From: Nitrospirota bacterium
Lineage (GTDB): Bacteria > Nitrospirota > JACRHJ01
Assembly (NCBI GenBank): GCA_963845245.1
Contig: CAWJRJ010000018.1
Coordinates: 1-64,000, forward strand
Direction: 5' to 3'
Length of the DNA stretch: 64,000 nt
Part shown: piece by piece, positions 15,150 to 54,936 of the stretch
Position numbering within the stretch: position 1 is the first letter of the stretch
How the letters are laid out: each line of letters begins with the position of its first letter
Notes under the pieces: model-generated
The model's input: the letters and a program-made list of their open reading frames with translations, nothing else
The model's database searches: none
What the model was told of the DNA's origin: nothing
Translations under genes and position numbers: made by a program

Positions 15150-16498
15150 TTGAACAGGACGCTGCTTATCATAGACGACGAAAAGTCTGTCCGCCAGTCT
15201 CTCCGGTATATGTTCAAGAACAAGGGCTACGATATCCATGAGGCCGGCAATGCGGCCGAAGGGGTCGCGGCCGCAAAAGCCGTCCAGCCTGACCTCGCCA
15301 TACTTGACTACAGGCTTCCCGACAAGACAGGCCTCGACGCGCTGGCCGAGTATAAAGGACGCCGCCCCCGACTGCCTTGTCATCATGCTGACCGCTTACG
15401 GGAGCATCCCGGACGCGGTTGTAGCGATGAAAAAAGGCGCCTTCGACTACCTGACCAAACCCGTAGACATCGACATGCTTGAGATAGCCGTGGAAAGGGC
15501 CGCCGGGGTCAGGCTTCTAAAACAGGAAAACGACAACCTGAAAAGCCTGAGCAGGCATGGCCCCGGAAGGGATCATCGGCGAATCGATGGAGGTCCACAA
15601 GCTGCTGCTCATAATAGGGATACTGGCCGAGAACAAGGACACCACCGTCCTCATCGAAGGCGAGTCCGGCACCGGCAAGGAACTGGTCGCAAAGAACATC
15701 CACAATATGAGCGCGCGCAGGGGAAGCCCTTTCGTGGACATCAACTGCGCGTCCCTTTCCGAGAACCTCCTGGAGTCCGAGCTGTTCGGGCACGAAAAAG
15801 GCTCGTTCACGGATGCAAAAGAGGCGAAGAAGGGGCTGGTCGAGATAGCGAACGGCGGCACGCTTTTCCTTGATGAGATAGGCGAGCTTTCGCCTTCCCT
15901 CCAGCCGAAGCTTCTTGAGGGTGCTTGAGACAAAGACGTTCCGCCGGGTAGGGGGGGTCAAGGATATAAAGGTCGACGTCAGGTTCGTGGCTGCCACGAA
16001 CCGCGACCTCGCTGAAGCGGTGGCTGCGAAGCAGTTCAGGGAGGACCTGTACTACCGTCTGCGCGTCATGCCCATCACGATACCCCCGCTGCGCGAAAGG
16101 GGAAAGGATGTACTGGTGCTTGCAAGGCATTTCGTGTCGCTTTTCTCCCGCGGCCTCAAGAAAGATGATCGAGGGGATCTCGCCGGAGTGTGAACCGTTG
16201 CTCCTTTCATATGGCTGGCCGGGCAACATCAGGGAGTTGAAGAACGTCATGGAACGTGCCGTGATCCTTGCCTCCGGCCCGTATATAATGCCTGAACACC
16301 TTGCCCGTGAGCTTACCGACCTCGCGTCTTCCGGCCCGAAGAGCAGGACTGCCGTCCCAAGCCTTGATAGAGATGGAAGCAAAACACATAACAGCGGTAC
16401 TCACAAGCGCCGGCAATAACCACTCTGAGGCCGCAAGGGCGCTAGGCATAAGCCGCACGACCCTCCTGGCAAAGATCAAAAAATTCCGCCTCGACTGA
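15150..16498 (+). CDS. Sigma54-dependent transcriptional activator (NtrC family: REC-AAA+-Fis HTH); about 4 apparent frameshifts; a TTG start is assumed
   Basis: REC ([14 protein letters not shown]...[14 protein letters not shown]), then the AAA+ sigma54-interaction domain ([34 protein letters not shown]), then a C-terminal HTH ([22 protein letters not shown]). It is in the same frame as the upstream kinase, with no stop between them. Confidence 0.7.
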
Positions 16499-16608: not shown

Positions 16609-16624
16609 TGGCACGGGACTTGCT
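16609..16624 (+). promoter_or_regulatory. Sigma54 (-24/-12) promoter upstream of the chemotaxis operon
   Basis: TGGCACgggacTTGCT matches TGGCAC-N5-TTGCW exactly. It lies 53 nt upstream of the first che-operon gene and about 110 nt downstream of a sigma54 activator gene. Confidence 0.65.
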
Positions 16625-16676: not shown

Positions 16677-17078
16677 ATGGAGATGACAAAAAGGATATTG
16701 ATTGTCGACGACGAGCCGACCATCCTGCTGAGCCTCTCATACTGCCTGAAGAACGAGCATGTTGAGGTGATAACCTCTTCGAGGATCGAGGCGGCGGAGG
16801 AAGCGCTTTCCAGGTACCCATTCGACCTGGTAATCGCGGACATAAGGATGAGCGGGATGTACGGCATCGAGGGGCTTGAGCTTCTAAGCTATGTGAAAAA
16901 GATCAGGCCGGAGACTGCGGTTATAATAATGACCGCATACGGTTCGGACGAGATAAAGGCGGAGGCTCTTAGACGCGGCGCGTTCTGGTATTACGACAAG
17001 CCGCTGAACATAGAGCACCTGTTGGGAAAGGTAAGCGAACTTGGTATCCCCATCTCAGGCATGGCGTCCTTGAGCTGA
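16677..17078 (+). CDS. Single-domain response regulator (CheY-like)
   Basis: REC domain: ILIVDDEPT...DLVIADIRMSGMYG...GAFWYYDKP. Confidence 0.85.
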   Translation: MEMTKRILIVDDEPTILLSLSYCLKNEHVEVITSSRIEAAEEALSRYPFDLVIADIRMSGMYGIEGLELLSYVKKIRPETAVIIMTAYGSDEIKAEALRRGAFWYYDKPLNIEHLLGKVSELGIPISGMASLS

Positions 17079-17107
17079 TTATCAGCTGGCAAATAACAGG
17101 GGGAAAT

Positions 17108-17497
17108 ATGCTAAAGAAGATTCTTATAGTCGACGACTCATCCCTTTTGCACCAGATGTACAAGCTGGTATTCATGCGCTACAAGGGTTGCAAGGTGATC
17201 TCGGCTATGAACGGGCTGGAAGCGCTCGACAAGCTCTCGCAGGAAGACGGTATAGAGCTTGTGCTGCTGGACATAAACATGCCTGTGATGAACGGGCTTC
17301 AGTTCTTGCAGAACATCCAGGAAGACGGCAATTACAAGGGGCTGCCCATCATAATAGTCAGCACCGAGGGGAAGGAAGAGGATACGCTCAGGGGCCTGTC
17401 CATGGGGGCCAGGGGCTACATCAAAAAGCCGTTCCAGCCCGCCGAGCTGCACACGATGATAGAGAAGATCTTTTCCGGCAGCGCCGTCACCGCATAA
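17108..17497 (+). CDS. cheY: Chemotaxis response regulator CheY
   Basis: REC domain of 129 aa (ILIVDDSS...LVLLDINMPVMNG...GARGYIKKPF), immediately upstream of cheA. Confidence 0.85.
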   Translation: MLKKILIVDDSSLLHQMYKLVFMRYKGCKVISAMNGLEALDKLSQEDGIELVLLDINMPVMNGLQFLQNIQEDGNYKGLPIIIVSTEGKEEDTLRGLSMGARGYIKKPFQPAELHTMIEKIFSGSAVTA

Positions 17498-17506
17498 GAG
17501 GCTAAA

Positions 17507-19186
17507 TTGGAAGAATTCGATACTTCCGGTCTTATACAAGAATACATCGACGACGCCAGGGGGCATCTTGAAAAGCTGGACTCTACGCTCCTTGAGATCG
17601 AGAAAGAGTCGGGCCAGGGGTTAGATGTTGAACTTGTCTCAGACCTGTTGGGCGCGCTTCACACCCTGAAGGGAAATTCGGGGATGATGGGTTTTGAGTC
17701 CCTCCAGAAATACGTCCATGAGCTGGAGAGCGTATTCAAATCACTCCTCGAAGGGAAAAACGGGCTGGATGAGGCGTTCCTGCAGACTCTTTTCGAGGCT
17801 GCCGGTTCTATCCGCGAGACCCTTGAACAGATCGAACGAGACCCGAAGTCCCAACCGGACCTCACCGCGCAAAAGCGCGTCCTTGAAGGACTTGCGGCCA
17901 ACGGCACCACGGGCCAGGCAAAGGCCCCAGCCTCGCCGCAGAAGGTAGACAGCTTTAAATACATAGCAGAAAAATCCAACATATTAAAAGTCGACTTCGA
18001 GCGGCTCGACCACCTTCTGAACCTTGCAGGCGAACTCGTGATACACAGGACGAAGCTTTCGCAGGTCGAGAAAAAGTTCAAGGAGCTGAAGGCCGAAAAG
18101 GAACTTGCCGCAGAGCTGACCGAAGCCAACTTCCTTATACAGAAGGCGGTAACAGAACTCCAGGAAGCGATAATGAAGGTCAGGATGCTTCCTGTACGCC
18201 ATGTATTCCAGCGTTTCCCCAGGATGGTCCGGGACCTCGCAAGGGAACGCGGCAAGGAAATCGAGATAATCTTCAAGGGCGAATCCACCGAACTCGACAA
18301 GACGGTCATCGACGAGATAGGCGAACCACTCCTCCACCTTATCAGAAACTCGGTGGACCACGGGATAGAGATGCCCGATGAACGTGTCAGGAAGAACAAG
18401 TCGCCGGTAGGCGAGATCGTGCTTTCCGCGGCCCAGGAAGGAAACAACATAATCATAACGGCGTCCGATAATGGCGCCGGCATCGACGTGGAGTCGGTCA
18501 GGGCCAAGGCCGCCCACATGTATACCGAGGAATCCCTCGAAGGCATGGCGGAGGATAACGTCCTCGACCTGATATTCGAGCCGGGTTTTACCACCGCAAG
18601 CGAAGTTACCCAGATATCCGGACGCGGCGTCGGGCTCGACGTCGTACGAAAGAGCGTATCGAACCTCGGCGGGATCGTGGAGGTTGCAAGCCAGCGTGGC
18701 ACAGGCACTACTTTCACCATCAAGCTTCCGCTCACCCTGGCGATCATATCGGCACTGCTGGTAAAAGGCGGAGACGAACTGTATGCGCTTCCGCTCTCCT
18801 CTGTTATCGAAAGCCTGAGGTTGGAGCCGTCCGAGTTGCAGACCGTGAACAACCGGGAGGTCATAATGCTCAGGGACAGGGTTCTCCCGCTCGTGCGCCT
18901 TTCTGAACTCTTCCACATTGAAAAGGCGCATGACCTGGGCCGCCTTTATGTCGTTGTCGTTGGCAGGGCCGAAAAAAAGGTCGGGCTTGTCGTGGACTCG
19001 CTCATGGGAAGACAGGAGATAGTCATAAAGACGCTTGGCGATTATGTCGGGGAGAACGCCGGGATTGCCGGCGCCACCATACTCGGAGACGGAAGCGTAG
19101 TGCTTATACTTGATGTCGCGGGCCTTATCGAGAAAAACATGCTCAAGGCCGACAGGAGAAGTTCGATATACAAGGAGGTGACGTAG
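17507..19186 (+). CDS. cheA: Chemotaxis histidine kinase CheA (TTG start)
   Basis: Hpt domain (HTLKGNSGMMGF), dimerisation region, HATPase (DNGAGID, GRGVGLDVV), and a C-terminal CheW-like domain. Confidence 0.9.
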   Translation: MEEFDTSGLIQEYIDDARGHLEKLDSTLLEIEKESGQGLDVELVSDLLGALHTLKGNSGMMGFESLQKYVHELESVFKSLLEGKNGLDEAFLQTLFEAAGSIRETLEQIERDPKSQPDLTAQKRVLEGLAANGTTGQAKAPASPQKVDSFKYIAEKSNILKVDFERLDHLLNLAGELVIHRTKLSQVEKKFKELKAEKELAAELTEANFLIQKAVTELQEAIMKVRMLPVRHVFQRFPRMVRDLARERGKEIEIIFKGESTELDKTVIDEIGEPLLHLIRNSVDHGIEMPDERVRKNKSPVGEIVLSAAQEGNNIIITASDNGAGIDVESVRAKAAHMYTEESLEGMAEDNVLDLIFEPGFTTASEVTQISGRGVGLDVVRKSVSNLGGIVEVASQRGTGTTFTIKLPLTLAIISALLVKGGDELYALPLSSVIESLRLEPSELQTVNNREVIMLRDRVLPLVRLSELFHIEKAHDLGRLYVVVVGRAEKKVGLVVDSLMGRQEIVIKTLGDYVGENAGIAGATILGDGSVVLILDVAGLIEKNMLKADRRSSIYKEVT

Positions 19187-27661: not shown

Positions 27662-27685
27662 CAGCCTGGCAAACCAAAAAGAAAA

Positions 27686-27707
27686 GGGCCGACACATGGG
27701 TCGGCCC
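27686..27707. terminator. Bidirectional hairpin between the convergent cheB and acs genes
   Basis: GGGCCGAC-acatgg-GTCGGCCC; on the minus strand it is followed by a TTTTCTTTTT tract. Confidence 0.55.
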
Positions 27708-27713
27708 CTACAG

Positions 27714-29700
27714 CTAAAGTCTTCCTTCCACCAGGTTGTCTACTACGGTCGGGTCTGCAAGGGTGGAGGTGTCTCCCAGGTTATCAAGCTCGTTTGCGGC
27801 TATCTTCCTGAGTATCCTCCGCATTATCTTGCCGCTTCTGGTCTTTGGCAGTCCGGGGGCGAACTGGAGCTTGTCCGGCGCGGCTATCGGACCGATGACG
27901 GTCCTGACGTGTCCTACGAGTATCTTCTTCAGCTCGTCAGAGGCCGTGAAGCCGTCCTTGAGGGTTACGTAGACGTAGATGCCTTCGCCCTTGATGTCGT
28001 GCGGGTAGCCTACGACCGCGGCCTCCGCGACCGCCTCGTGCGAGACGAGGGCGCTCTCCACCTCGGCGGTACCCAGCCTGTGGCCGGACACGTTGATGAC
28101 GTCGTCGATCCTGCCCATCAGCCAGAAGTCACCGTCCTCGTCAAACCTGGCGCCGTCACCGCTGAAGTAGACGCCCGGGAACCGGCTGAAGTATACTTCC
28201 TTCATGCGGGTATTCTCAGGGTCGCCGTAGGTGCCGCGCAGCATCCCGGGCCAGGGCCTCTCGATTACCAGGTATCCGCCCTCGTTGGCCCCGGCGGGCG
28301 AGCCGTCCTCTCTTATTATCTTTGGCAGTATGCCCGGGAATGGCCTGTTGGCCGAGCCGGGCTTCAGTGTCATTGCGCCGGGTATGGGTGTGATCATGAA
28401 GCCGCCGGTCTCGGTCTGCCACCACGTATCGACGATGGGGAGCTTCCTGCTGCCGATGTTCTTGTGGTACCACATCCAGGCCTCGGGGTTTATGGGTTCT
28501 CCGACCGTGCCGAGCACCCTCAGGGACGAGAGGTCGTAGTTCTGAACCCACTTCTCGCCCTCCTTCATGAGCGCGCGTATGGCGGTCGGTGCGGTGTAGA
28601 ATATGTTCACCCCGAACTTCTCCACTATGTCCCAGAACCTGCCCGGGTTCGGGTAGGTGGGTATGCCCTCGAACATGAGGCTCGTGGCCCCGTTTGAAAG
28701 GGGGCCGTAGACCACGTAGCTGTGGCCCGTTACCCAGCCTATGTCGGCGGTGCAGAAATGTATGTCCTCTTCCTTGTAGTCGAATGTCCACCTGAACGTG
28801 AGGTTCGTATAGAGCAGGTAGCCGCCGGTCGTGTGGAGCACGCCCTTCGGTTTGCCGGTCGAGCCGGACGTGTAGAGGATGAACAGGGGGTCCTCGGCGT
28901 CCATCCATTCCGGTTCGCAGTAGTTGCAGACATGTGCAGTCGTTCATTTCGTCGTGCCACCACGTGTCGCGGCCCGGCGCCATGTCAATGCCGTCCTTGC
29001 CGGTGCGGTTAACGACTATTACGCTTGTCACGGTCGGGCACTCGTTCAAAGACTCGTCCGCGTTGACCTTGAGAGGGACTATCCTGCCGCCCCTGATGCC
29101 AGCGTCGGCGGTGATGAGCATGCTCGACTTGCAGTCCTGGATCCTGTCCCTCAGCGCGCTTGCGGAGAAGCCGCCGAACACTATGCTGTGTATAGCGCCG
29201 ATCCTGGCGCATGCGAGCATCGATATCGCCAGTTCCGGGATCATGGGCAGATATATTGTAACCCGGTCGCCCTTCTTGACGCCCTTCCTCAGCATGACGT
29301 TGGCGAACCTGTTCACCTCGCGGTAGAGCTGCTGGTATGTATAGGTCTTGTACGTGCCGTCGTCGGCCTCCCATATTATGGCGGCCTTGTTCCTGAAGGT
29401 AGGGCTCTGGACGTACCTGTCAAGGCAGTTGTAGGATACGTTGAGCTTGCCGCCCTTGAACCAGTTTATCTCGGGTTTGTGAAAGTCGTATTCAAGGACG
29501 CTGTCCCATTTCTTGTACCACGTAAGGTTCTTTTCGGCCATCTCGGCCCAGAAGTCTTCCGGGTCCTCGATGGACCATTTGTAGAGCTTTTCGTACTCTT
29601 CCATGCTCTTTATATGGGCATTCTTTGAGAATTTCTCGCGTGGCGGGAATGTCCTTGATTCGCTGGAATGTACCTCTATACCCATGTCCGATTCCGACAT
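27714..29700 (-). CDS. acs: Acetyl-CoA synthetase (AMP-forming); apparent frameshift near 28905-28940
   Basis: N-terminal half ([33 protein letters not shown]) and C-terminal half ([48 protein letters not shown]) sit in two overlapping frames. Confidence 0.85.
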
Positions 29701-29799
29701 TGAATTACCTCCTGGTCAGCCGGTTTTATAACATCAAGGACGGCCCACAAGACAACCGGACCGTCCTCTTCTTTATCATTTTTTACTTAAGCTGTCAAA

Positions 29800-31281
29800 C
29801 TAAAACCATATCTGCAGGTGCGTCGTGAAAACCTGATGTCCCTTGAAGCCGTTGTCGTTCTGCTGAAGGGTGAATTTTCTGAGCGCTCCGTCGGCGTGCT
29901 CCATCTCGTAGTCGAACATCAGCCGTGCGTACTTGTTCAGCCAGTAGTTGACGCCCACCGTCGTCTTGGCGCGCGCATTGTCCGGGGTGGCTGTATCCTC
30001 GTCGAACTGCTCATAACGCACGAGCGGTTCAAAATCGTTCACGTACTTCATCATGCCGGTCAGGCCGTTGACCCTATATGCGCCCGTAACATACCAGCCT
30101 TGCGAGTGGACGAACCTCGGGGACTTCATGTCGATTGCGGTCGTGAGGCTGGACAGGGGGTCTATGCCTTGGGTGAAATACCTCCTCTGCCAGAGGTACT
30201 CGCCCCTTATGAAGAGACCCTTGGCGAACCTGGCCGGCTGGAAGTCAAGCTCCGCGCCCCAGCGGTCGTAGTCCGGGTTTAGCTCACTTGCAGTCTTGGT
30301 CTTGTCGAAGTGAGACTTGCCCAGGTACCAGGACCCACCCACGCTCAGGCCGTCCACAAGCGGGTTGACCCAGCCGCGGACCATCACGTCCTTCGCGTCG
30401 TTGTTATCGGCGAAGGACGTGCTCTCAAGGCCGTTTACAAGCGCGGCAGTCAACCCGCCGCCCAATGGGAGGCCCGCCACCTTCGTGGAATACTTGCTGG
30501 CGAGCATAAGGCCGTTAGAGCGCGCGGTCGGTATCTGGACGAACGTCGATGCTATAGCGTAGTTTATCGTCGGCACCTCGAACGGCGCGCGCCAGACCTC
30601 GTCGCCGTATGGGGTGAGGAAACGGCCCAGCGTTACGCGGGTATACGGGATATAGTCGGCCCATACATACGCGTCCCGGAGGATGTTGCCGCTTGTCGGG
30701 GCGGCGTCCACTGCTATCCTGAAGCCAAGCTTCTCCCCAACCGTGCCGTTAAAATAAAGTCTCGCATACCTTACATGAAAGTTGTTGCCGGCAGTCGGCG
30801 CCAGCGCGTTCGCCACACCGGGATAATATGTGGATGAGCCGGAGGAGTCGGTAAGCCAGCCGAGCTCCGTCCAGGTCCCGATCTTCAGTTTGACTGTGTC
30901 GCCGCCAAGCTTGGCGAAACCGTCCTCAACTGCGCTAAACGCCTTGTCGAGCGGCCTGTCCGCCGGGGCGGCAGATGCCGGGGACGCCTGCGGGGTTACC
31001 GCAACCACCGGGGACTTTGCCTGCTCGGCCAGCTTGCTGTATGTGGCATCGTCGAGGATGCCTTTGTTGTGGAGAACATCCACCAGCTTTGAATCGAGGG
31101 CCTGTTCGCCGCCCGTTGCCTGGACGTCCTTAAGGTCGTTGTACGTGATGTCGTCTATGACGCCCTTGCCGTGTAGCGCCTCGACCAGCGCCCCGGATAC
31201 CGACTGGCCGGCCGCCATGGCCGGGACGGACCAGCAGGCCAGTACCAGAAAAAAAGTGCATATTACTCTGATAAAACGCAT
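29800..31281 (-). CDS. OprO/OprP-family anion-selective porin, paralog 1
   Basis: Signal peptide MRFIRVICTFFLVLACWSVPAMAAG, a tandem N-terminal LHxKG(I/V)(I/L)DDxTY motif, a beta-barrel with a terminal aromatic (…HLQIWF), and similarity to the ORF at 53392-54936. Confidence 0.7.
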   Translation of the reverse strand: MRFIRVICTFFLVLACWSVPAMAAGQSVSGALVEALHGKGVIDDITYNDLKDVQATGGEQALDSKLVDVLHNKGILDDATYSKLAEQAKSPVVAVTPQASPASAAPADRPLDKAFSAVEDGFAKLGGDTVKLKIGTWTELGWLTDSSGSSTYYPGVANALAPTAGNNFHVRYARLYFNGTVGEKLGFRIAVDAAPTSGNILRDAYVWADYIPYTRVTLGRFLTPYGDEVWRAPFEVPTINYAIASTFVQIPTARSNGLMLASKYSTKVAGLPLGGGLTAALVNGLESTSFADNNDAKDVMVRGWVNPLVDGLSVGGSWYLGKSHFDKTKTASELNPDYDRWGAELDFQPARFAKGLFIRGEYLWQRRYFTQGIDPLSSLTTAIDMKSPRFVHSQGWYVTGAYRVNGLTGMMKYVNDFEPLVRYEQFDEDTATPDNARAKTTVGVNYWLNKYARLMFDYEMEHADGALRKFTLQQNDNGFKGHQVFTTHLQIWF

Positions 31282-31327: not shown

Positions 31328-31909
31328 CTAAATCCATGGCCTGCCCACCGGCAGCCTGATCCCCGATTCTGCATATACTGCTGCAGCCATGAGGTACCAC
31401 GCCAGCAGGGCGCATACGATGAGGTCCCATGCCGCGATAGTCCCGGCGACCTGGTTGCCGGCCAGTTCCTTGAGGTCAAGGCCGATAAAGCCGAGCAGCA
31501 GCGTAAGGAAAAGAAGGGCCAGTGCGCTGTGGTGCTTCATCGAGGCTATGAACAGGATAAACGTGAAAAAAGTCCACATGAGAAGGAAGATGCCGAGGCC
31601 GGCAGCGTCGAACTGAAGGACGGGGAAGGCTTTCGCCACTTCTGTATTCGTGCCGAATATCAGATAAAAACACAGTGCAATCCAGAAGGCCCCGTACCCA
31701 GTAAAGGCGCAGAAGCCGAAGTTGTTGCCCGTTTTAAACTCAAGCAGCCCTGCGACTATCTGGGCGCCGCCCCCGAACAGAAGGCCAATCCAGATAACCG
31801 GGCCGAGGCCGACCAGCCCAAGGTTGTGGAACTGCAATATCAGCGTTGTCATCCCGAACCCGCCGAGGCCAACAACCGCCGGGTTACCAAGTTTTAATTC
31901 CTGAGCCAT
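31328..31909 (-). CDS. satP: GPR1/FUN34/YaaH-family acetate/succinate channel (SatP-like)
   Basis: The NPAVVGLGGFGMTT signature and 6 TM helices. Confidence 0.8.
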   Translation of the reverse strand: MAQELKLGNPAVVGLGGFGMTTLILQFHNLGLVGLGPVIWIGLLFGGGAQIVAGLLEFKTGNNFGFCAFTGYGAFWIALCFYLIFGTNTEVAKAFPVLQFDAAGLGIFLLMWTFFTFILFIASMKHHSALALLFLTLLLGFIGLDLKELAGNQVAGTIAAWDLIVCALLAWYLMAAAVYAESGIRLPVGRPWI

Positions 31910-32034
31910 TTATACCTCCCGTACAATCAGATCTGTCGATTTGATGCCCAATACCTCGGGCGTTTTTTTTGAACGCCAAAAATGTAGCCAAAAGAACTTT
32001 TACGTCACCTCCTTCCGGATATATGACTATATTT

Positions 32035-32051
32035 AGCAACAAAGATGCCAG
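32035..32051 (-). promoter_or_regulatory. Sigma54 (-24/-12) promoter upstream of satP-porin-acs
   Basis: The minus strand reads TGGCATctttgTTGCT, about 125 nt upstream of the satP start. Confidence 0.55.
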
Positions 32052-32160
32052 AATATATAACGACGTTTGAGAATTATGTATCTAGTTGATAATAAAGGCG
32101 TAAATTGGGAGGTTTCGCCGTCTGGCGCGTACGGACGAGGCTTTCGGGTTCGGCGAGAGA

Positions 32161-32275
32161 TGTTACTTTAAGTAATGCAGAAATAATCTATTGTTAAATT
32201 CCTTTAAATAACAAGCGAATGCATATGTTACTTATGGTAACGCAGTGGGGTCGGAATAAGTTACTTTTTGTTACA
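32161..32275 (-). promoter_or_regulatory. Cluster of TGTTAC/GTAACA inverted and direct repeats (candidate enhancer sites for the adjacent sigma54 activator)
   Basis: TGTTACtttaaGTAAT (32161), TTGTTA-N12-TAACAA (32191-32214), TGTTACttatgGTAAC (32226-32241), GTTACtttttGTTACA (32260-32275), all between the activator gene and the sigma54 promoter. Confidence 0.4.
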
Positions 32276-33632
32276 AATGGTCGCTTCTTGGTATGCTCCA
32301 GCGCTTGCGTTTCTCCCAGAGGGATTTGCGGGTTATCCCCAGCATGTCCGCAATCTTCTGCTCGGTCATATTCTGCTGGTATTTCAGTATTATTGCTTTC
32401 GTGTACTCCTCTATTGAAAGGGCATCCAAATCAATAGCGGAACTGGTTGTGGCCAGCGGGCTGTTTCTGAGCTTGTCGGGCAGGTGTTCGGGCGTGATCG
32501 AGTTGATGTCGGTGATGAGGACGGCCCTCTCGATTATATTCTTCAGTTCGCGCACGTTTCCCGGCCATGAATATTCCATGAATATCGAGATTACCTCGTC
32601 CGATATGTCCTTTACCGGTTTCCCGAGTTCGGCCGCGTATTTGTCGAGGAAGTGTCGGGCAAGCAGCGGCACGTCTTCCTGCCTCTCCCTGAGCGGGGTC
32701 AGAGCAAGGTTGATCGTGTTTATGCGGTAGTAGAGGTCTTCCCTGAACGAGCCGTCCTTGGTGGCCTTCTGGAGGTCCTTGTTTGTCGCCGTTATGAACC
32801 GCAGGTTTACTTTCAGGCTCTGGTTCCCGCCGACCTGCCTTATCTCCTGGTCCTCTATCACCCGAAGCAGTTTTGACTGGAGCCCCGTGCTCATCTCGCC
32901 GATCTCGTCGAGAAATACGGTGCCGCTGTTCGCTTCTTCAAACAGCCCCTTCTTTGCGGCGACCGCGCCGGTGAAAGCACCCTTTGCATGTCCGAAAAGC
33001 TCTGACTCAAGCAGGTTTTCCGGTATCGCCGAGCAGTTTATGGGCACGAACGGCTTGTCCTTGCGCATGCTGCTGTAGTGTATGGCGCGCGCGATAAGCT
33101 CCTTGCCCGTCCCAGTCTCGCCCACAATCAGGACGTTGCTCTTCGCGTCGGCAATCTTTGTGACCTCGTCCAGTACCTTCCTTATCTTCGGGCAGACGCC
33201 TATTATATGGCTGAAGTCGTACTCCTTCTCTATCTGTTTCCGAAGGATAAGGTTTTCCGTCTGGAGCGAGCGCTGTTTGAGGGCGCTTCGTACCAGCAGT
33301 TTCACCTCTTCATGGATTATGGGCTTCATTATATAGTCGTATGCTCCGGCGCGCAGAGCCTCGACTGCCGTCTCGAGCGAGGCGAATGCGGTCATCAGCA
33401 CGATAAGCTGGTCGGGTTGTCTCTCCCGCACCTTACGGAGCACCTCTATCCCGTCTATCCCGGGCAGGAAGATGTCGCTGATTATCAGGTCGTAGATGGC
33501 CGACCCGGTCAGTTCCAGGGCATCCTCCCCGGTGCCAGTGGTTGTCACGTCGTAACCTTCACGCGTCAGGAGCCGCCCGAGCGACTCGCGGAGCGTCTCC
33601 TCATCGTCTATTATCAGTATCCTCTCAGACAT
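32271..33632 (-). CDS. Sigma54-dependent response regulator (NtrC/CbrB-like)
   Basis: REC (ILIIDDEETLRESL...DLIISDIFLPGIDG), AAA+ ([42 protein letters not shown]), and a C-terminal HTH. Confidence 0.85.
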   Translation of the reverse strand: MSERILIIDDEETLRESLGRLLTREGYDVTTTGTGEDALELTGSAIYDLIISDIFLPGIDGIEVLRKVRERQPDQLIVLMTAFASLETAVEALRAGAYDYIMKPIIHEEVKLLVRSALKQRSLQTENLILRKQIEKEYDFSHIIGVCPKIRKVLDEVTKIADAKSNVLIVGETGTGKELIARAIHYSSMRKDKPFVPINCSAIPENLLESELFGHAKGAFTGAVAAKKGLFEEANSGTVFLDEIGEMSTGLQSKLLRVIEDQEIRQVGGNQSLKVNLRFITATNKDLQKATKDGSFREDLYYRINTINLALTPLRERQEDVPLLARHFLDKYAAELGKPVKDISDEVISIFMEYSWPGNVRELKNIIERAVLITDINSITPEHLPDKLRNSPLATTSSAIDLDALSIEEYTKAIILKYQQNMTEQKIADMLGITRKSLWEKRKRWSIPRSDHL

Positions 33633-36564
33633 CTTTCGCCCCCATCGGCAGACTTATTATGAATGTGGTGCCCTTGCCCTTTTCGCTGTCCACCAGTATC
33701 TTCCCTCCGTGTTCTTTTATTATCCCGTAGCAGATGCTCATCCCAAGACCAGTACCCTTGCCGGGTGACTTGGTCGTGAAGAACGGGTCGAAAACCTTCT
33801 CCGCCGTGTCCTTGTCCATGCCAAGGCCGGTGTCCTTGAATATGATGTCGACATTGTCCTTTGACTGTTTCACCTTTATGGCAAGCCTACCGCCCTCCGG
33901 CATGGCGTCCAGCGCATTCAGCAGCAGGTTCAAGAATACCTGCTGTATCTGGTCTGGGTTTATATTAACGTCCGGGACGGTCTCGATGTCCTGGGTTATC
34001 TCGATCTTCTTGAACTTTTTGTCGTAGCGGGTGAGGTTGAGGGTGCTGTCAAGAACGTCTATTATGTTTGTGCTTACCTTCTCCGGTGTGTAAAGCCTTG
34101 CAAAATCGCCCAGGCTTCGCACTATCCTGACTATCCTCCCGATGTGGTGGTTTATTATATCGAGGGCTTCTTTATGGAACTCCGGGGAGCTTACCTCCTG
34201 TATCTCCTGCACGAGCGAGGATATGGAGGCCAGCGGGTTCCCGATCTCGTGGGATATGCCTGCGGTCAGTTTGCCGATGCTCGCGTATTTCGACGCCTGA
34301 AGGAGTTCTTCCTCCCTCCTCTTGGTCTCGGTGATGTCGTCTATCATCAAGACGAAGCCGCCCTGCGGGTCCTTGAACTGGCTTACGGACACCTTAAGCA
34401 GCGCGGGCGACAGCGATTTCCGGTCGCAGGTGTACTCCCCGCCGGCGATGCCGCCGGAGAAGATGTCCGGCTTTATGCAGTTGAGGAGTTCCTCAATTGG
34501 CCTGCTATGGGCATTGTCTCTTTTGATGTTTGATATAGACTCCATCGCTTTATTCCAGTAAGTGACCCTGTGCTCACGGTCGAGTGTTGCAATGCCCTGA
34601 GGCACGCTCTCGATGATGTTCTGGCTGAACTCCTTCAGGAACGAAAGCTCGACATTTGCCTCCTCAAGCTTCTCCCTCGAAAGCCTGAGCCGGTCGGTTA
34701 TCTGCCTTATCGAGGACGAAAGCTCGTCTGTAAGCACCAGCCTTTTCCTGAGGATCAGGGTGGAGATGGCCGAGCCGAGCGCGCCTGAGAGTATCTTTTC
34801 GGCCTCGTCCCGAAGCTCGACAAGCTGTTCAGGTTTTATCTCCGCCGCGTTTATCTTCCGGCGTTCCATGAACTGCGCTATAGCGGCCCTGGCCTCGTCC
34901 ATCCCTATATAACTTCCCAACAGCCGTTCTACTTCCTCCACACTGTGCAACCCCGGGAAGGATGCGCCGCCGACAGGGTCGTACGACTCCACGAACACGA
35001 AGGCCTGCCTCTCCTCCTCGGCAGACTGTTTAGTGAATATGGAAACGCTTAAATAGAGGCCGAGGTTTATAAGCAGGCTCCAGAACAGCGAGTGGGTCCA
35101 TTTGTCCAGGCCGCCTACACCGAAGAGCGCGTTCGGGTTAAGGGCGGATGAGCTGAAAAGCTGTTGCAGGTACGCGTTCGATATGACGCCCGCCTTCACC
35201 AGCGCAGGTATGAAGAGCGTATACAGCCACACGATAAAGCCCGCGACCAGGCCGGCCATCGCGCCCCTTCTGTTCCCGCCCTTCCAGTAAAGCCCGATGA
35301 GAAGCGACGGCGCAAAGAGCGTCACCGCCTCGAACGACTTCAGCCCCATGTCAACAAGGGAATAGAACTCGCCGACCGAGACCGCGAAGAAATAGCCCAG
35401 GAACACGCAGAACAGTATGACGAGCCTTTTCACATTCAAGACCAGCGCGGGAAAACCCTTGGTCTTGTTGAAGCGGATAAGCACCGGCATGACAAGGCTG
35501 TTCATCACCATCGTGGAAAGCGCGAGCGACTCCACGATTATCATCCCGGTCGCGGCCGAGAAGCCGCCGAGGAATACGAGCAGTGCAAGTGCTGGTTTGC
35601 TCTGTCCCAGCGGGATGGTAAGGAGGAAGCTGTCCGCCTGCGACACCTGTCCGCCCAGCAGCAGCCCGCCGAAGGCGACCGGCAGCACGAATATATTTAT
35701 CAGGAGCATATAGAGCGGGAAGAGCCACATCGCCTTCAGGATGTGCTTAGGGTCGGAGTTCTCCACGACGGCCATGTGGAACTGCCTCGGCAGGAACATT
35801 ATGGCCATCATCGAAAGGAACGTCAGCGAGCCCCACTCGAAATACGAGGTTGGGCTCTCGGTGCCCAAGCTGAAAAGCCTGCCCGAGCCGGTCTCGGCCA
35901 CCCTCTGAAATATGTCGCCGAAGCCGTTGAATATTCCGTATGTAACGAATGCCCCGGCAATCAGGAACGCGAACAGCTTCAGTATGGACTCGAACGCTAT
36001 CGCGAACACCAAGCCCTCGTGCCGCTCCGAGGAGTCCAGCTTCCTCGCTCCGAAAATGATCGCAAATATCCCAAGGAACAGGGCGATGAACCAGCCAGCC
36101 GCCAGGCTTCCCTCCGTATGGCCGGTCATTATTTCGTACGTGGATATTATGGATTTTATCTGGAGGCCGAGGTACGGCGTTATGCCTACGAGCGCCACGA
36201 CCGCTACCAATGCGGAGAGCGAGAGTGACCGGCCATAGCGCGCGCCGATGAAGTCGGCGATGTTCGTTATCCTGTTCTCCTTCGCCACCACAACCATCTT
36301 GCGCAGGATAATCCACCACAGACAGGCCATCAGCGTCGGGCCCAGGTATGTCGTCAGGAAAGAAAGCCCGGATGTGGCGGCCTTGCCGATGCTGCCGTAG
36401 AACGTCCATGAGGTGCAGTATACCGCGAGCGATAGCGAATATATGTAGGGGTTTGAGACAATGCTCCTGCCCGCCTTCTCACGCGCCTCGGCGTAGTATG
36501 CCAGCGCGAACAGCAGGAACAGGTATGCGAGGACGATAATAAATAGTGTGCCGGGGTTGAACAC
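33625..36564 (-). CDS. Sensor histidine kinase with an N-terminal sodium:solute-symporter (SSS) domain (CbrA/CrbS-like)
   Basis: About 13 TM helices (SSS family), coiled coil, PAS, HisKA ([14 protein letters not shown]), HATPase (DTGLGMD...[18 protein letters not shown]). Confidence 0.85.
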
Positions 36565-36744
36565 CTATCCGCCGTCCTCCTCTTTTGATGCCCTGCGGAT
36601 GAAGAGGTAGATGAGCGCGATGAGGAGCAGCCAGGTGGTGTAGAGGTATGCGGGCAGGTGCGAGCCGAAGATGGCCAGGAGTGGCCAGTTCAACGCCAAA
36701 GTACCTATAAAGAAAAGAAAAACCCAGACTTCCTTCGTCTTCAT
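36565..36744 (-). CDS. Small 2-TM membrane peptide translationally coupled to the SSS-kinase (cbrX-like)
   Basis: 59 aa (MKTKEVWVFLFFIGTLALNWPLLAIFGSHLPAYLYTTWLLLIALIYLFIRR...). Its stop abuts the kinase start codon. Confidence 0.4.
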   Translation of the reverse strand: MKTKEVWVFLFFIGTLALNWPLLAIFGSHLPAYLYTTWLLLIALIYLFIRRASKEEDGG

Positions 36745-36794
36745 GTTACCTAATGTAACATTACTAAAAACCTTTGTCAACGGGGAACACGAGC

Positions 36795-37142
36795 CTATGC
36801 CCCGGCCACCCCGCCCCGGAACATGAAATACGCCGCACCTGCCAGACATATCCCAGCCCAGAGGTAATCGAGCCTCAGGGGCTGCTTCATATATAGGTAC
36901 GCGAACCCCGCGAACACCGTCATCGTGATAATCTCCTGAATCACCTTCAACTGCCCCAGGTCGTAATATTTGTATCCAATCCGGTTCGCCGGGACCTGTA
37001 GTGTATACTCAAAGAAGGCGATTCCCCAGCTAACGAGTATCACGAGGATGAGCGGCTTGGTGCTCATCGTCTTTAAATGCCCGTACCAGGCGAAGGTCAT
37101 GAACATGTTGGAAAAGGTTAGAAGGACGATGGTCTTTAACAT
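36795..37142 (-). CDS. Small DMT-superfamily-like 4-TM membrane protein
   Basis: MLKTIVLLTFSNMFMTFAWYGHLK...; hydrophobic; DUF486/EamA-like pattern. Confidence 0.45.
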   Translation of the reverse strand: MLKTIVLLTFSNMFMTFAWYGHLKTMSTKPLILVILVSWGIAFFEYTLQVPANRIGYKYYDLGQLKVIQEIITMTVFAGFAYLYMKQPLRLDYLWAGICLAGAAYFMFRGGVAGA

Positions 37143-37290
37143 GGCTTCCTCAAAAAACTGGTTAATAACATGACGCAATAGGTTATTTTACGCCAAAACC
37201 AGACTAACTGCAAGATATTGCTGACAAAAACATGACACGAAAATGTCGCTTGACATCGAAAAAAAATAGGCATATCTTTATCCCGATTTC

Positions 37291-37467
37291 TGATTGCAGC
37301 CGAGATCCAGTTAACAATGGATGCGGGGGACCCAGATTCCGGGGCGGATTCCTTCTTTTTGAGGATAAGGCACTCCCAAGCCTGAGCCCGACAGCTAACC
37401 TCGTAGGCGTTTGGTGAGCAATGAGCAGTGCGTGAGCCGCTGGTCTTGCCAGTGGTTTTCTTTTTTT
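37291..37467 (+). ncRNA. c-di-AMP (ydaO-type) riboswitch candidate with a terminator expression platform
   Basis: Contains GCGGGGGACCCA, GGGGCGGAUUCC, and GAGCCCGACAGCUAACCUCGUAGGCGUUUGGUGAGC, which resemble the conserved blocks of the ydaO motif. It is followed by the hairpin CCGCTGGtcttgCCAGTGG plus TTTTCTTTTTTT. It is preceded by TTGACA at 37249 and lies about 50 nt upstream of a KimA-like transporter gene. Confidence 0.6.
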
Positions 37468-37514: not shown

Positions 37515-39515
37515 ATGAATGCGCCATCCAATGAACGAAAGACACTTAAAAAGAGGCTTAAAAACCTTGTTATAGGCGGCGGGCGCGACATATTCGACCC
37601 GCAAGTGTTCCACAACATCTCGCTGATAGCCTTCTTTGCCTGGGTAGGTCTTGGCGCCGACGGGCTGTCGTCGTCTTGCTACGGTCCGGAGGAGGCCTTC
37701 CTCGCGCTTCAGGGCCACACGCACCTGGCTGTTTTCATAGCCCTGGCCTCGGGCATCACCGTCTTCGTCATAAGCACCAGCTACTCGCAGATAATCGAGC
37801 TTTTCCCCACCGGCGGCGGCGGATACCTTGTGGCAAGCAAGCTCCTCTCGCCCACCGCTGGCATGGTCTCCGGCTGCGCGCTGCTCATAGACTACGTCCT
37901 CACGATCACGATATCCGTCGCATCTGCTGCGGACGCCATCTTCAGCTTCCTGCCGCCGCACTGGCTTGCTTACAAGCTCGGGTTTGCGGTGATTGCGGTA
38001 CTTGTGCTTACCGTTATGAACCTGCGGGGCGTGAAAGAGTCCGTGCTGCCGCTTGTGCCAATATTCCTCACCTTCATCGCCACGCACGCATTCTTCATCA
38101 TCTATGCGCTTGTGTCGCATGCCGGAAACTTCCCGGAGCTCATCCATTCCACCGGGACCGAGATACAGCGCACGCACACGGAACTCGGGTTTTTCGGGAT
38201 GTTCTTCCTTATAATGCGCGCGTACAGCCTGGGCGCCGGTACCTATACCGGCATCGAGGCGGTCAGCAACGGGCTGCCCATACTTCGTGAGCCGAGGGTA
38301 AAGACCGGCAAAAAGACTATGCATTACATGGCCTTCTCATTGGCCTTCACCGTCATGGGCCTTATGTTCGCCTACCTGCTCTACGGCGTCTCGCACGTGC
38401 CGGGCAAGACCCTCAACGCGGTCCTCTTTGAGAACATAACCAAAGGCTGGGGAGGTTCCGCCTACATTTTAGTGCTGGTCACGCTGATCTCAGAAGGAGT
38501 GCTGCTCCTGGTCGCGGCCCAGGCAGGCTTTTTGGACGGGCCAAGGGTGCTCTCGAACATGGCGCTAGACCGCTGGTTCCCCACGAAGTTCGCGTCATTC
38601 TCGGACCGCCTCGTCACGCAGAAAGGCATACTGATAATGGGTGGCGCCGGGTTGGTAATGATGGTGCTCTCGAAAGGCTCAGTCGGCTTGCTCGTCGTCC
38701 TGTATTCCATCAACGTCTTCATCACATTCTCGATGTCGCAGCTCGGCATGGTGCGCCACTGGTGGCAGGAGCGGGGCAAGGCGGACCACTGGAAGAAGAA
38801 GCTCTTCATCAATGGGCTTGGTCTTTCCATGACCACTTTCATACTCATCTCGGTCGTCATATTGAAGTTCGGGGAGGGCGGATGGATAACGCTTGTAATA
38901 ACCGGCGCTCTCATCGGGCTTTCGCTCCTGATCAAGAGGCACTACCTGAACACCCAGAAGATGCTGGGCAGGCTTGACACCCTTGTCGAGGCGGCAGGGT
39001 ATGACCTCCACACCAAAACAGAACTTGAGGGCGAAGGGTACAAGGTTCAGTACGACCCGAAGTCCAAGACGGCAGTCCTGCTGGTAAACGGATACAACGG
39101 GCTGGGGCTGCATACCCTCCTGAACGTCATACGGCTTTTCGGGGGGATGTTCAGGAACTTTGTGTTCATAGAAGTGGGCATAGTGGACGCAGGCACCTTC
39201 AAGGGCGCGGAAGAGCTTGAGCACCTGAAGAAGAAGGTCAACGGAGACCTGGAGATGTACGTCAATTTCGTCAAGAGCAAGGGCTTCTATGCGGAAGGGT
39301 TTGCAATGATCGGCACGGACGTTGTCGAGGAGGTATCCAAGGTGACGCCCGAGATCATGGATAAATTCGGCAACACGGTATTCTTTGGCGGCCAGCTCGT
39401 ATTCCCGAACCCGTCGATCTTTACGGGCTTCCTGCACAACTACACCATCTTCGCCGTGCAGAGGTATTACTACAACCAGGGCATACCCATAATGATGATG
39501 CCGATACGGGTCTGA
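37515..39515 (+). CDS. APC-superfamily transporter with a C-terminal cytoplasmic domain of about 220 aa (KimA-like K+ importer candidate)
   Basis: 12 TM helices of the APC fold (GGGYLVASKLL, LLIDYVLTITISVA) plus a soluble C-terminal domain; context of a c-di-AMP riboswitch. Confidence 0.65.
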   Translation: MNAPSNERKTLKKRLKNLVIGGGRDIFDPQVFHNISLIAFFAWVGLGADGLSSSCYGPEEAFLALQGHTHLAVFIALASGITVFVISTSYSQIIELFPTGGGGYLVASKLLSPTAGMVSGCALLIDYVLTITISVASAADAIFSFLPPHWLAYKLGFAVIAVLVLTVMNLRGVKESVLPLVPIFLTFIATHAFFIIYALVSHAGNFPELIHSTGTEIQRTHTELGFFGMFFLIMRAYSLGAGTYTGIEAVSNGLPILREPRVKTGKKTMHYMAFSLAFTVMGLMFAYLLYGVSHVPGKTLNAVLFENITKGWGGSAYILVLVTLISEGVLLLVAAQAGFLDGPRVLSNMALDRWFPTKFASFSDRLVTQKGILIMGGAGLVMMVLSKGSVGLLVVLYSINVFITFSMSQLGMVRHWWQERGKADHWKKKLFINGLGLSMTTFILISVVILKFGEGGWITLVITGALIGLSLLIKRHYLNTQKMLGRLDTLVEAAGYDLHTKTELEGEGYKVQYDPKSKTAVLLVNGYNGLGLHTLLNVIRLFGGMFRNFVFIEVGIVDAGTFKGAEELEHLKKKVNGDLEMYVNFVKSKGFYAEGFAMIGTDVVEEVSKVTPEIMDKFGNTVFFGGQLVFPNPSIFTGFLHNYTIFAVQRYYYNQGIPIMMMPIRV

Positions 39516-53150: not shown

Positions 53151-53391
53151 CAATTTAATATCCTCTGAAGCCGGTACTCCCTAAAGCCTTTCGCAAAGCC
53201 ATGGGGGCCGGCCGACAGGGTCATGCCTGAAAGGACATGGTCTCCCGTTATTTTGGAAAGGAGGTGTGAGCGACCGCAGATACCCGTGTCTTGTCTTGCT
53301 GGAAGAGTATTCTTCTTCCTCTTCTTCGTTTATTTCGTACTATTTTAGCCATTTTCCAGTATATTTATTATCCGTAAAGGGGGATTTTGTA
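53151..53391 (+). other. 240-nt structured 5' leader of the porin/ABC-transporter operon (riboswitch candidate, possibly Moco/Wco-class)
   Basis: GC-rich stems (GCCGG...CCGGC; GGGTCATGCCtgaaaGGACATGGTCTCCC), GAAAGG/GGAAAGGAGG elements, and a polypyrimidine tract before the SD AAGGGGGA. Confidence 0.3.
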
Positions 53392-54936
53392 ATGCGTTTC
53401 ATAGTTACACTGGCTGGTTCTTTATTATTGTCCCTTGCCTTCAGTTTCCAGGCAATGGCGGCGGATTCTGCGGCTCTCCTTGAAGTGTTGCACAACAAAG
53501 GGATCATAGACGACGCGTCCTACTCCGACATAAAGGGCGCCGGGAAGGGGCAGGCAGCCGATAAAAAGCTACTCGATGTCCTACATACCAAGGGCATACT
53601 CGACGACTCGGACTATAACCGTCTAACTGAACATGCTGGCAAGGAGGCCGCGGCGTCAGTAGCGGCATTGCCGCAGTCTTCTCCGGCCCCCGCAGCGCCC
53701 TCCGACGGCTCCAGGCCGTTCGACAAGGCCTTCTCCTCGGTGGAGGAAGGTTTCGCAAGGCTCGGCGGCGACACCATCAAGCTGAAGATCGGTGCGCTCC
53801 TCCAGACGGGCTTTCTTAACGACGACGCGGGTTTTTCGGTGACTTCACCTCCTACTACCAACTTTTCGGCAACTTCCGGCAACCAGTTTTTTGCCAGGCG
53901 CGCGAGGCTGTTCTTTGATGGCATGGTGATGGACAAGGCCGGGTTCAGGATTTCAATCGAGACCTCGGACACCACCGGCAAGATACTCAGGGACGCCTAC
54001 TTCTTCGCGGACTACATACCATATGCGAGGGTTACGGTAGGGCAGTTCAAAGTGCCGTTCGGCGTCGAAGGCGTCGAGTCCATAGGCGCCAACCCGACGG
54101 TAAACCGCTCTTTGGCGACCAATTTTATTCATTACCCGACGCTTCGCGACCTCGGTGTGATGCTCTCAGGCCAGTACCAGAATAAGTTAGGGACTCTCCC
54201 CATCGGAGCGGGTTATGCGGTCGCGGTCGTGGACGGCAATGGCATGAACACAACCGACAACAACGACAACAAGGATGTGTCGGGTCGCGTATGGATTAAC
54301 CCGCTGGTGCCGGGCTTTACGGTTGGTGGCTCGTTTTATAACGGCAAGACGAATACCCTTACATTTGATAAGGGCGACCCCACAAAGATCCCCCCCGTCC
54401 TCCCAGACCCGACCAAGGACAAAGTTAACGACAAGATAAAGAAGGACTGGGACCGCTGGGCTGCTGACGTAGAGTACAGGCCCGCATATATGAAGGGTCT
54501 CCTGCTCCGGGGCGAATTCCTCTGGGCGAGAAAATATTATGCAAAGTACGCATCAGTGGATGTTATCAGCACTACGGATACGTCAAAAAGCCCGCTCCCG
54601 CACGTCAACCGTCAGGCGCACTCATATGGCTGGTACGCACTCGCCGCATACAAGGTGGACGGGCTGCCGGGCTACTGGCGCTATCTGAATGGCTTTGAGC
54701 CTTTGGCGCGGTATGACTACTTTGATGAGGATACCAGCACCCTTACCGCCATCTCACGGCAGGATTCACGCAACCGGGTTACGCTCGGCCTCAACTACTA
54801 CCTGAACAAATACACTATGCTGAAGACCAACTACGAGATAATCCATGCGGATGGTGGGCTTAAGACCGAATCGCTTGAGACGATAGACAATATTGGTCAC
54901 CACCTGTTCACCACACTGGTCCAGGTAAAATTCTAG
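53392..54936 (+). CDS. OprO/OprP-family anion-selective porin, paralog 2
   Basis: Signal peptide MRFIVTLAGSLLLSLAFSFQAMAA, the same tandem LHNKGI(I/L)DD motif, barrel ending LVQVKF; similar to the 29800-31281 ORF. Confidence 0.7.
   Translation: MRFIVTLAGSLLLSLAFSFQAMAADSAALLEVLHNKGIIDDASYSDIKGAGKGQAADKKLLDVLHTKGILDDSDYNRLTEHAGKEAAASVAALPQSSPAPAAPSDGSRPFDKAFSSVEEGFARLGGDTIKLKIGALLQTGFLNDDAGFSVTSPPTTNFSATSGNQFFARRARLFFDGMVMDKAGFRISIETSDTTGKILRDAYFFADYIPYARVTVGQFKVPFGVEGVESIGANPTVNRSLATNFIHYPTLRDLGVMLSGQYQNKLGTLPIGAGYAVAVVDGNGMNTTDNNDNKDVSGRVWINPLVPGFTVGGSFYNGKTNTLTFDKGDPTKIPPVLPDPTKDKVNDKIKKDWDRWAADVEYRPAYMKGLLLRGEFLWARKYYAKYASVDVISTTDTSKSPLPHVNRQAHSYGWYALAAYKVDGLPGYWRYLNGFEPLARYDYFDEDTSTLTAISRQDSRNRVTLGLNYYLNKYTMLKTNYEIIHADGGLKTESLETIDNIGHHLFTTLVQVKF

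Follow-up and report, generated by a model that had tools for sequence, protein, structure and literature searches.

The 64,000-nt stretch of DNA analyzed here (the window; contig CAWJRJ010000018.1 of a Nitrospirota bacterium, positions 1 to 64,000) carries on its minus strand genes for a sensor kinase and a response regulator, followed by genes for acetate uptake and activation. Based on sequence comparisons, we regard this locus as probably a CbrX/CbrA/CbrB-type system of Nitrospirota (probably Thermodesulfovibrionia) that is wired via sigma-54 to an operon for acetate uptake and activation. Its architecture and DNA recognition follow CbrAB, and its regulon follows CrbSR. The order on the minus strand is a 59-aa peptide open reading frame (ORF), an SLC5/STAC-PAS kinase, a regulator with REC, AAA+, and helix-turn-helix domains, a 360-bp spacer, satP, a Porin_O_P porin, and acs. 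This gene order and its coordinates had been given in an original prediction made from the letters of the window, and both were reproduced by ORF and domain searches. The kinase, the regulator, satP, the porin, and the small ORF are all intact. The features of the locus are as follows.

36565-36744, minus strand: CbrX-like peptide ORF, 59 aa; its start is M36 of a 94-codon ORF
33625-36564, minus strand: sensor histidine kinase, CbrA homolog, 979 aa, by Pfam and alignment to CbrA
32271-33632, minus strand: response regulator and sigma-54 activator, 453 aa, with REC/Sigma54_activat/AAA_lid domains
31328-31909, minus strand: satP (AceTr / GPR1-FUN34-YaaH acetate channel), 193 aa, by NCBIfam AceTr_1
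29800-31281, minus strand: outer-membrane porin, Porin_O_P, 493 aa, with a signal peptide, an N-terminal helical region, and a 16-stranded barrel
29736-29768, minus strand: conserved hairpin between porin and acs, with a 12-bp stem, -29 kcal/mol, and z -2.7
27714-29700, minus strand: acs (acetate-CoA ligase), frameshifted, with an NCBIfam match in two frames
27684-27709, minus strand: intrinsic terminator 3' of acs, with a 10-bp stem and a T-run

Sensor kinase, regulator and small peptide

The kinase is laid out as an SLC5 domain of the 13-transmembrane type, STAC, a coiled coil, PAS, HisKA (with H772), and HATPase. Its N-terminal part matched Pfam SSF with 26.8 bits (cut-off 22.8), and Pfam placed PAS at residues 648-744, HisKA at 764-824, and HATPase_c at 869-974. 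The catalytic motifs are intact, with H772 in the H-box SHEIGNPL and with the N and G boxes. Residues 7-601 align with the solved SLC5-STAC chain of CbrA (10ed_A; E = 8e-81, 34% identity). The alignment covers residues 10-584 of that chain, including the four-helix STAC bundle described for CbrA (PMC13022988), and it was this alignment, not a STAC profile, that served to assign the STAC domain. Over its whole length of 979 residues, the kinase is collinear with CbrA of Pseudomonas putida (31% identity, E = 1e-142). Homologs at 60-93% identity all came from Nitrospirota or Thermodesulfovibrionia metagenome bins. The SLC5 domain is 42-46% identical to those of SLC5 kinases adjoining acs in proteobacterial loci, whereas its identity to CbrA is only 34%; the ligand therefore probably differs from that of CbrA. 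The likeness to the acs-linked proteobacterial kinases fits an acetate-type ligand without proving one.

The regulator contains D53 in its REC domain and the intact motifs GETGTGKE, GAFTGA, and FLDEIG in its AAA+ domain. The Pseudomonas cbrX-cbrA-cbrB-crcZ locus (L090; L numbers denote the loci fetched) was used for comparison with CbrX, CbrA, and CbrB. The regulator is 43% identical to CbrB over residues 5-449 (E = 1e-125), and the alignment runs through to the last residues. Its helix-turn-helix is of the CbrB type, LGITRKSLWEKRKRW. When the C-terminal 52 aa (…MTEQKIADMLGITRKSLWEKRKRWSIPR) were used for a search, every Nitrospirota ortholog was retrieved, and then CbrB (…MTETELARKLGVSRKCLWERRQRLGIPR) with 49% identity and an E-value of 1.5e-11. 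The other sigma-54 activators in about 1.5 Mb of fetched loci, including those of the window, scored at most 26 bits in this search of the DNA-binding domain, the best nonorthologous activator being at 25.8 bits (E = 0.06). The recognition helices are nearly identical, TRKSLWEKRKR in the window and SRKCLWERRQR in CbrB. Because the regulator and CbrB share this DNA-binding helix, GTAAC half-sites are common to both systems.

The small peptide has 59 residues with two hydrophobic helices; CbrX has about 58 residues. The TAG stop of its gene abuts the GTG start of the kinase gene, which suggests translational coupling. The peptide gene is kept upstream of nearly all SLC5/STAC kinase loci that were fetched, across phyla, and gene callers annotate the 59-aa gene in L081 and L082. 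A profile-profile comparison with CbrX by hhalign gave a probability of 70% and an E-value of 4e-5. In a search of the Protein Data Bank (PDB) with the peptide profile by hmmsearch, CbrX ranked second among 177,635 sequences (E = 9.5); a single-sequence search of the PDB with the peptide did not match CbrX. The homology of the peptide and CbrX is thus suggested by synteny and a weak profile similarity. CbrX binds the SLC5 domain of CbrA (PMC13022988). The label "CbrA/CbrB-like" was used in the original prediction and is now backed by the comparisons of the kinase, the regulator, its DNA-binding domain, and the peptide.

In several Desulfuromonadales / Geobacteraceae loci (L032, L033, L039, L041-L043, and others), proteins were found that match the kinase from residue 1 to about 610-660 only, corresponding to SLC5-STAC. 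Each of them is preceded by a longer version of the small peptide, of about 80 aa.

Palindromes and predicted promoters

The spacer between the regulator gene and satP had been said to contain four TGTTAC/GTAACA-type repeats and a sigma-54 promoter. Half-site repeats are present there, but they form three palindromes of 15 bp, GTTAC-N5-GTAAC, not four repeats. On the minus strand, the spacer reads tTGTAACaaaaaGTAACt, cGTTACcataaGTAACa, cATTACttaaaGTAACa, and then TGGCATctttgTTGCT.

32260-32274, minus-strand reading: putative upstream activator site 1, GTAACAAAAAGTAAC, with one mismatch; overlaps the TAA stop of the regulator gene
32227-32241: putative upstream activator site 2, GTTACCATAAGTAAC, a perfect palindrome
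32162-32176: putative upstream activator site 3, ATTACTTAAAGTAAC, with one mismatch
32035-32050, minus strand: predicted sigma-54 (-24/-12) promoter, TGGCATctttgTTGCT, an exact TGGCAY-N5-TTGCW

The centers of the three palindromes are 33 and 65 bp apart, and the center of site 3 is 126.5 bp from that of the promoter element. With up to one mismatch, the palindrome occurs four times in the 64 kb against an expectation of 0.8, and none of 100 shuffled sequences reached four. Three of the four lie in the spacer, and the fourth lies at the promoter of the sensor operon. Exact palindromes number two (0.01 expected). The exact pattern TGGCAY-N5-TTGCW also occurs twice in the window (0.09 expected), in both cases just downstream of a sigma-54 activator gene; the pattern with one mismatch allowed was not enriched (3 found, 3.7 expected).

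The spacer elements recur in relatives. In 31 orthologous loci, 39 palindromes (up to one mismatch) were found in the 11.5 kb directly 3' of the regulator gene versus 13 in the other 572 kb, an enrichment of about 150-fold. Some of the latter 13 precede displaced targets, namely a DUF294 operon in L084 and a separate CBS-DUF294 gene in L010, which is preceded by a second palindrome pair. In most of the orthologous loci, a -24/-12 element follows 85-190 bp beyond the last palindrome; the sigma-54 promoter proposed at first therefore stands as an exact consensus with an equivalent in most relatives. In an alignment of five loci with satP after the regulator gene (A3), the half-sites and TGGCA...TTGTTGCTA are invariant, and the flanks have diverged. 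The GG-N10-GC consensus, the remote upstream sites, and an activator with the GAFTGA loop are all present at the locus. No good site was found in the spacer by a sigma-70 scan, an Rfam scan of the spacer at permissive thresholds gave no match, and inspection by eye of the region between the upstream sites and the promoter showed no convincing consensus for IHF. Taken together, the comparative evidence is strong that the regulator has the palindrome as its upstream activating sequence and that the promoter is real. Direct control of the acetate genes by sigma-54, as originally proposed, is supported by this phylogenetic footprinting across the 31 loci.

A separate promoter was found in front of the peptide gene, together with a palindrome that, like the frameshift in acs, had been overlooked in the original prediction.

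36752-36780, minus strand: sigma-70-like promoter of the sensor operon, TTGACA-17-TACATT with a TG extension, 10/12 matches
36745-36759: fourth palindrome, GTTACATTAGGTAAC, a putative autoregulatory operator and perfect match; overlaps the -10 and the start site

This promoter was the best sigma-70-like site of the region in the promoter scan. Seven nucleotides separate the end of its -10 from the peptide ATG, and no Shine-Dalgarno sequence is present, so the peptide mRNA is probably leaderless. About half of the relatives (L002, L003, L010, L011, L013, L017, and L028-L030 among the loci with an apparent leaderless start) have a similar -10 located 5-8 nt before the ATG without a Shine-Dalgarno sequence, and the rest have one. 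The promoter and the fourth palindrome are kept in L081 and L082, where the half-sites are the same and a spacer base is changed. We infer, with moderate confidence, negative autoregulation of the sensor operon in this subclade.

Acetate operon and porin

The product of satP matched NCBIfam AceTr_1 with 133.5 bits (cut-off 50). satP, the porin gene, and acs are closely spaced, and the terminator scan gave no terminator-like site between them and a strong one after acs. In L083, the gap between the porin gene and acs is 9 nt. The hairpin located in this gap of the window is GC-rich, is kept with compensatory changes in L087, L088, and L001, and is preceded by a conserved CTTGACAGC box. It may act as a partial terminator, contribute to mRNA processing or stability, or belong to the region of a secondary promoter for acs.

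In the relatives that were inspected, the genes downstream of the regulator gene are always acetate genes. The satP-porin-acs arrangement is found in the window, L001, L082, L087, and L088. The adjacent target in most relatives consists of genes for a cyclic nucleotide monophosphate-binding/CBS-DUF294 protein, an RNase_T exonuclease, DUF485 or DUF4212, a sodium:solute symporter (SSS; ActP-like), a porin in some cases, and Acs. The CrbS/CrbR acetate regulon of Pseudomonas fluorescens was determined by experiment to contain acs, DUF485/ActP, and a DUF294 protein (PMC5715377). As the relatives have the same gene set, the output of the system is suggested to be acetate uptake and activation.

The two arrangements meet among the closest relatives. 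L081 and L082 both have kinases 93% identical to that of the window; L081 has the DUF294-RNase_T-DUF485-SSS cassette, and L082 has satP. The promoter regions of L081 (6750-7070), L082, and the window (31990-32060) are alike up to a Shine-Dalgarno-like AAGGAGG, which in the window (~32008-32012) is an orphan at the place where the DUF294 gene would start. These features suggest a recent cassette replacement just behind the promoter, in which satP took the place of DUF294-exonuclease-DUF485-ActP. Genes for DUF294, RNase_T, DUF485, or ActP were not found elsewhere in the window.

A related gene set was observed in Rhodocyclales. In L072 (7490-16400; Azonexus hydrophilus), acs comes first and is followed, in this order, by genes for an SLC5 kinase that lacks PAS, a receiver that stands alone, a fusion protein with RNase_T, and a DUF294 protein. 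L059, L074, and L075 are similar, and L059 and L075 add a small ORF before the kinase gene. The DUF294-exonuclease pair thus accompanies SLC5 kinases and acs in two phyla, recurring alongside acetate systems.

The porin belongs to Pfam Porin_O_P (53.6 bits, cut-off 20.9). Its AlphaFold2 model (predicted local distance difference test score, 76.6) has 16 strands and N-terminal helices. The best PDB folds were OprP (2o4v) and OprO (4rjw) with E-values of about 7e-16, ahead of general porins. A sequence search of the PDB gave no meaningful match, OprP included, and the porin is only 16-17% identical to OprP/OprO. The Porin_O_P membership and the predicted 16-stranded barrel are shared with OprP/OprO; the N-terminal helical extension resembles that of the DcaP-type carboxylate channels, of which 6eus was also among the fold matches. 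Many Arg and Lys residues are invariant across the porin family.

Thirty-one homologs of the porin were found, and those named by source were labeled Nitrospirota. Genomic contexts were taken from five fetched homologs and from L001, which was located by tblastn. All six (P0121, P0122, P0126, P0128, P0137, and L001; 47-92% identity) lie directly upstream of acs, and not beside pst/pho genes, unlike OprP/OprO. Acs-linked porins occur in both satP-type and DUF294-type operons. The presence of an anion-selective porin in the operon had been called unusual, but the porin gene is a conserved neighbor of acs in this clade. The two homologs examined at 39-43% identity (L085, 9001-15330; L086, 9001-13007) both lie beside a PBP_like_2 ABC transporter, and the L085 locus also carries PhoU and PHO4. 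This distribution suggests that the acs-linked porins diverged from oxyanion-uptake porins. It is a reasonable hypothesis that the porin arose from oxyanion porins and serves as a channel for carboxylates or acetate, and this Porin_O_P subfamily is flagged here as a candidate for acetate- or carboxylate-specific channels of the outer membrane.

Known systems, proposed mechanism and alternatives

CbrAB has been described in reviews as exclusive to Pseudomonadaceae. As in CbrXAB of Pseudomonas and Azotobacter (L090; PMC8871633), a small peptide with two transmembrane helices, a kinase, and a regulator are encoded in the window, with a sigma-54 promoter directly 3' of the regulator gene, and the genes for the peptide and the kinase adjoin or overlap. 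Both systems use GTTAC/GTAAC(A) half-sites, with multiple sites 100-250 bp upstream of the promoter. The CbrB hexamers TGTTAC/GTAACA named in the original prediction agree with those reported (PMC6296734, PMC8871633). The systems differ in the spacing of the half-sites: the literature layout for CbrB is TGTTAC-N12-14-GTAACA (PMC8871633), and the crcZ promoter of L090 has TGTTAC-N15-GTAACA-N16-GTAACG, then TGGCAC-N5-CTGCT, whereas the spacing in the window is N5; the short spacers noticed at the outset are thus borne out against N12-15 in CbrB. Other differences are the host phylum, Nitrospirota, and the overlap of the kinase and regulator genes by 8 nt, whereas cbrB has its own promoter. In addition, the targets here are genes of acetate uptake and activation and not the small RNAs crcZ/crcY, by which CbrAB brings about Crc/Hfq catabolite repression. 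CrcZ and CrcY were not among the gathering-threshold Rfam matches in the window, where the scan gave only two unrelated riboswitches, and it is satP that follows the promoter.

With CrbS/CrbR (MxtR/ErdR) of Vibrio and Pseudomonas, the system of the window shares an SLC5/STAC kinase in control of acs and acetate permease genes, and a presumed role in acetate scavenging. The regulons were likened on the basis of synteny and of the conservation of sites. CrbS is a hybrid kinase that ends in a receiver domain, whereas the kinase of the window ends at residue 979 after HATPase_c and gave no Response_reg match. CrbR is of the LuxR type and works via the ACTU inverted repeat (-52 to -36) of RpoD-dependent promoters. 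In contrast, the regulator of the window has Sigma54_activat/AAA+, a -24/-12 promoter, and remote sites (the ACTU motif itself was not searched for). Membership in CrbS/CrbR was therefore rejected: the kinase lacks a receiver, the regulator is not of the LuxR type, and the promoter is not of the RpoD type.

In the NCBIfam search, the transmitter half of the kinase and the regulator matched best to AtoS and AtoC of Escherichia coli, which are likewise a case of sigma-54 control of short-chain carboxylate metabolism. However, AtoS is without an SLC5/STAC domain, and the DNA-binding domain of the window is of the CbrB type. Identity with AtoS/AtoC was rejected, as the scores (258.6 versus 646 and 488.8 versus 714) are far below the equivalog cut-offs.

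A mechanism of the system is proposed below, with every step drawn from homology and comparative genomics. The peptide and the SLC5/STAC kinase would form a membrane "transceptor" that responds to acetate or a related short monocarboxylate. The kinase would autophosphorylate at H772 and pass the phosphate to D53 of the regulator. Regulator dimers would then occupy the three palindromes, about 3 and about 6 helical turns apart, and three dimers could supply one AAA+ hexamer. Hydrolysis of ATP by the ring bearing GAFTGA would open the complex of the sigma-54 holoenzyme at the -24/-12 promoter, and satP, the porin gene, and then acs, by read-through past the hairpin, would be transcribed. The fourth palindrome, which covers the -10 and start of the sensor promoter, would give negative autoregulation. 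With the frameshift in acs, this copy of the last step of the pathway is either broken or mis-assembled.

Several points weigh against this reading. In eight of the 31 orthologous loci, palindrome and -24/-12 element are both missing directly 3' of the regulator gene; at least one of these loci (L084) has sites ahead of the displaced DUF294 operon. What the SLC5 domain of CbrA binds and transports is histidine and not acetate. The operator at the sensor promoter is absent in distant loci and kept only in the closest relatives (kinases about 93% identical); autoregulation is therefore claimed for this subclade only. Between the porin gene and acs, a weak TTGACA box accompanies the conserved hairpin, so that transcription might partly end there or acs might have a promoter of its own. 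No match to rpoN was obtained in the window with the RpoN box; because at least two sigma-54 activator genes are present, rpoN is expected elsewhere in the genome. The palindrome and rpoN searches of the source genome cover the 64-kb window only. Finally, acs is frameshifted by one extra nucleotide near 28932 relative to the intact 659-aa genes of L087 and L088. The frameshift gives the overlapping ORFs 28216-29700 and 27714-28904, and the fragments match positions 5-244 and 254-644 of the family model (TIGR02188 / NF001208) in different frames. Either acs is a pseudogene, or the assembly is in error at this place.

The last point admits the explanation that the module is decaying in this genome, acs being a true pseudogene and the circuit no longer conferring acetate assimilation. 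The insertion lies outside a homopolymer, in comparison with intact orthologs such as that of L087 (91% DNA identity), and the sigma-54 activator gene at 15150-16498 is also broken, into at least five frames. However, the kinase, the regulator, satP, the porin, and the small ORF are intact with their catalytic motifs, the damage is a single indel in 2 kb whose source may be an error-prone assembly, and acs is intact in L087 and L088, which are close relatives; decay is rather improbable. The histidine binding by CbrA bears on another explanation, in which the same proteins and sites would constitute a global regulator of carbon or energy status that senses a nonacetate signal (an amino acid or carbon limitation), with the acetate operon as a merely adjacent target. 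CbrAB is global, with at least 61 direct targets, and the SLC5 domain of its kinase binds histidine (PMC6296734, PMC13022988); crcZ, directly downstream of cbrB, is only one among many CbrB targets, and the second palindrome pair of L010 would fit a target away from the regulator gene. This explanation is unlikely, given that every inspected relative has an adjacent acetate-utilization operon, though with varying gene content, that the SLC5 domain is nearer to the acs-linked proteobacterial kinases than to CbrA, and that the 64 kb hold no further palindromes. It is highly improbable that the GTAAC repeats and the GG-N10-GC box occur by chance, or are bound by another factor, with satP-porin-acs transcribed from an ordinary sigma-70 promoter. 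Although the sites are predicted from sequence alone and the sigma-54 pattern is not enriched when one mismatch is allowed, this would leave unexplained the enrichment of the palindrome at the orthologous position, the invariant footprints in A3, the DNA-binding helix held in common with CbrB, which recognizes the same half-site, and the lack of a good sigma-70 site in the spacer.

If the locus is a CbrX/CbrA/CbrB-type acetate system, a clear CbrXAB homolog outside Pseudomonadaceae challenges the textbook exclusivity of CbrAB, and two characterized SLC5/STAC systems become linked through the wiring of CbrAB and the regulon of CrbSR. A literature search turned up no report of acs being controlled by sigma-54 or by an SLC5 kinase outside Proteobacteria. 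One recognition helix and half-site at two spacings could show how an enhancer-binding protein tolerates spacing. More tentatively, and possibly rather than probably, CbrXAB is a branch of an ancient family of peptide, SLC5/STAC kinase, and sigma-54 activator present in at least two phyla, with acetate scavenging as the ancestral role and with a Nitrospirota regulon that includes an acetate or small-carboxylate porin derived from phosphate-type porins. In that case, the helix and the half-site would have been kept across phyla while the spacing alone changed, the difference of N5 and N15 being one helical turn, and the porin would be the first regulated "acetate porin". Most Thermodesulfovibrionia-type Nitrospirota are uncultured, and they rely on acetate as a key source of carbon. 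The predicted operator (GTTAC-N5-GTAAC in twos or threes and a -24/-12 box) allows prediction of the acetate regulon in these bacteria.

Other features of the window were recorded. Directly upstream of the sensor operon is a gene for a 115-aa DMT_6 (PF04342) membrane protein (36795-37142, minus strand), which occupies the same position in L081 and L082. Divergent from the sensor operon is a cyclic di-AMP (ydaO-type) riboswitch, RF00379, at 37288-37423 on the plus strand (83.8 bits), and 3' of it are a terminator-like hairpin (37434-37458, plus strand) and an amino-acid permease gene (37515-39515, plus strand). The second sigma-54 activator gene (15150-16498, plus strand) is split over five or more reading frames, and 3' of it, at 16609-16624 (plus strand), is a promoter with the perfect sequence TGGCAC-N5-TTGCT. 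Beyond it, at 16677-19186 (plus strand), are two single-domain receiver genes and CheA, then genes for a methyl-accepting chemotaxis protein, a HEAT-repeat protein, CheR, and CheB. The arrangement resembles a chemotaxis-like cluster controlled by sigma-54, with its activator broken or mis-assembled. A molybdenum/tungsten cofactor riboswitch, RF01055, lies at 53151-53279 on the plus strand (51.5 bits) and overlaps the GTG start (53266) of a 556-aa ORF at 53266-54936.

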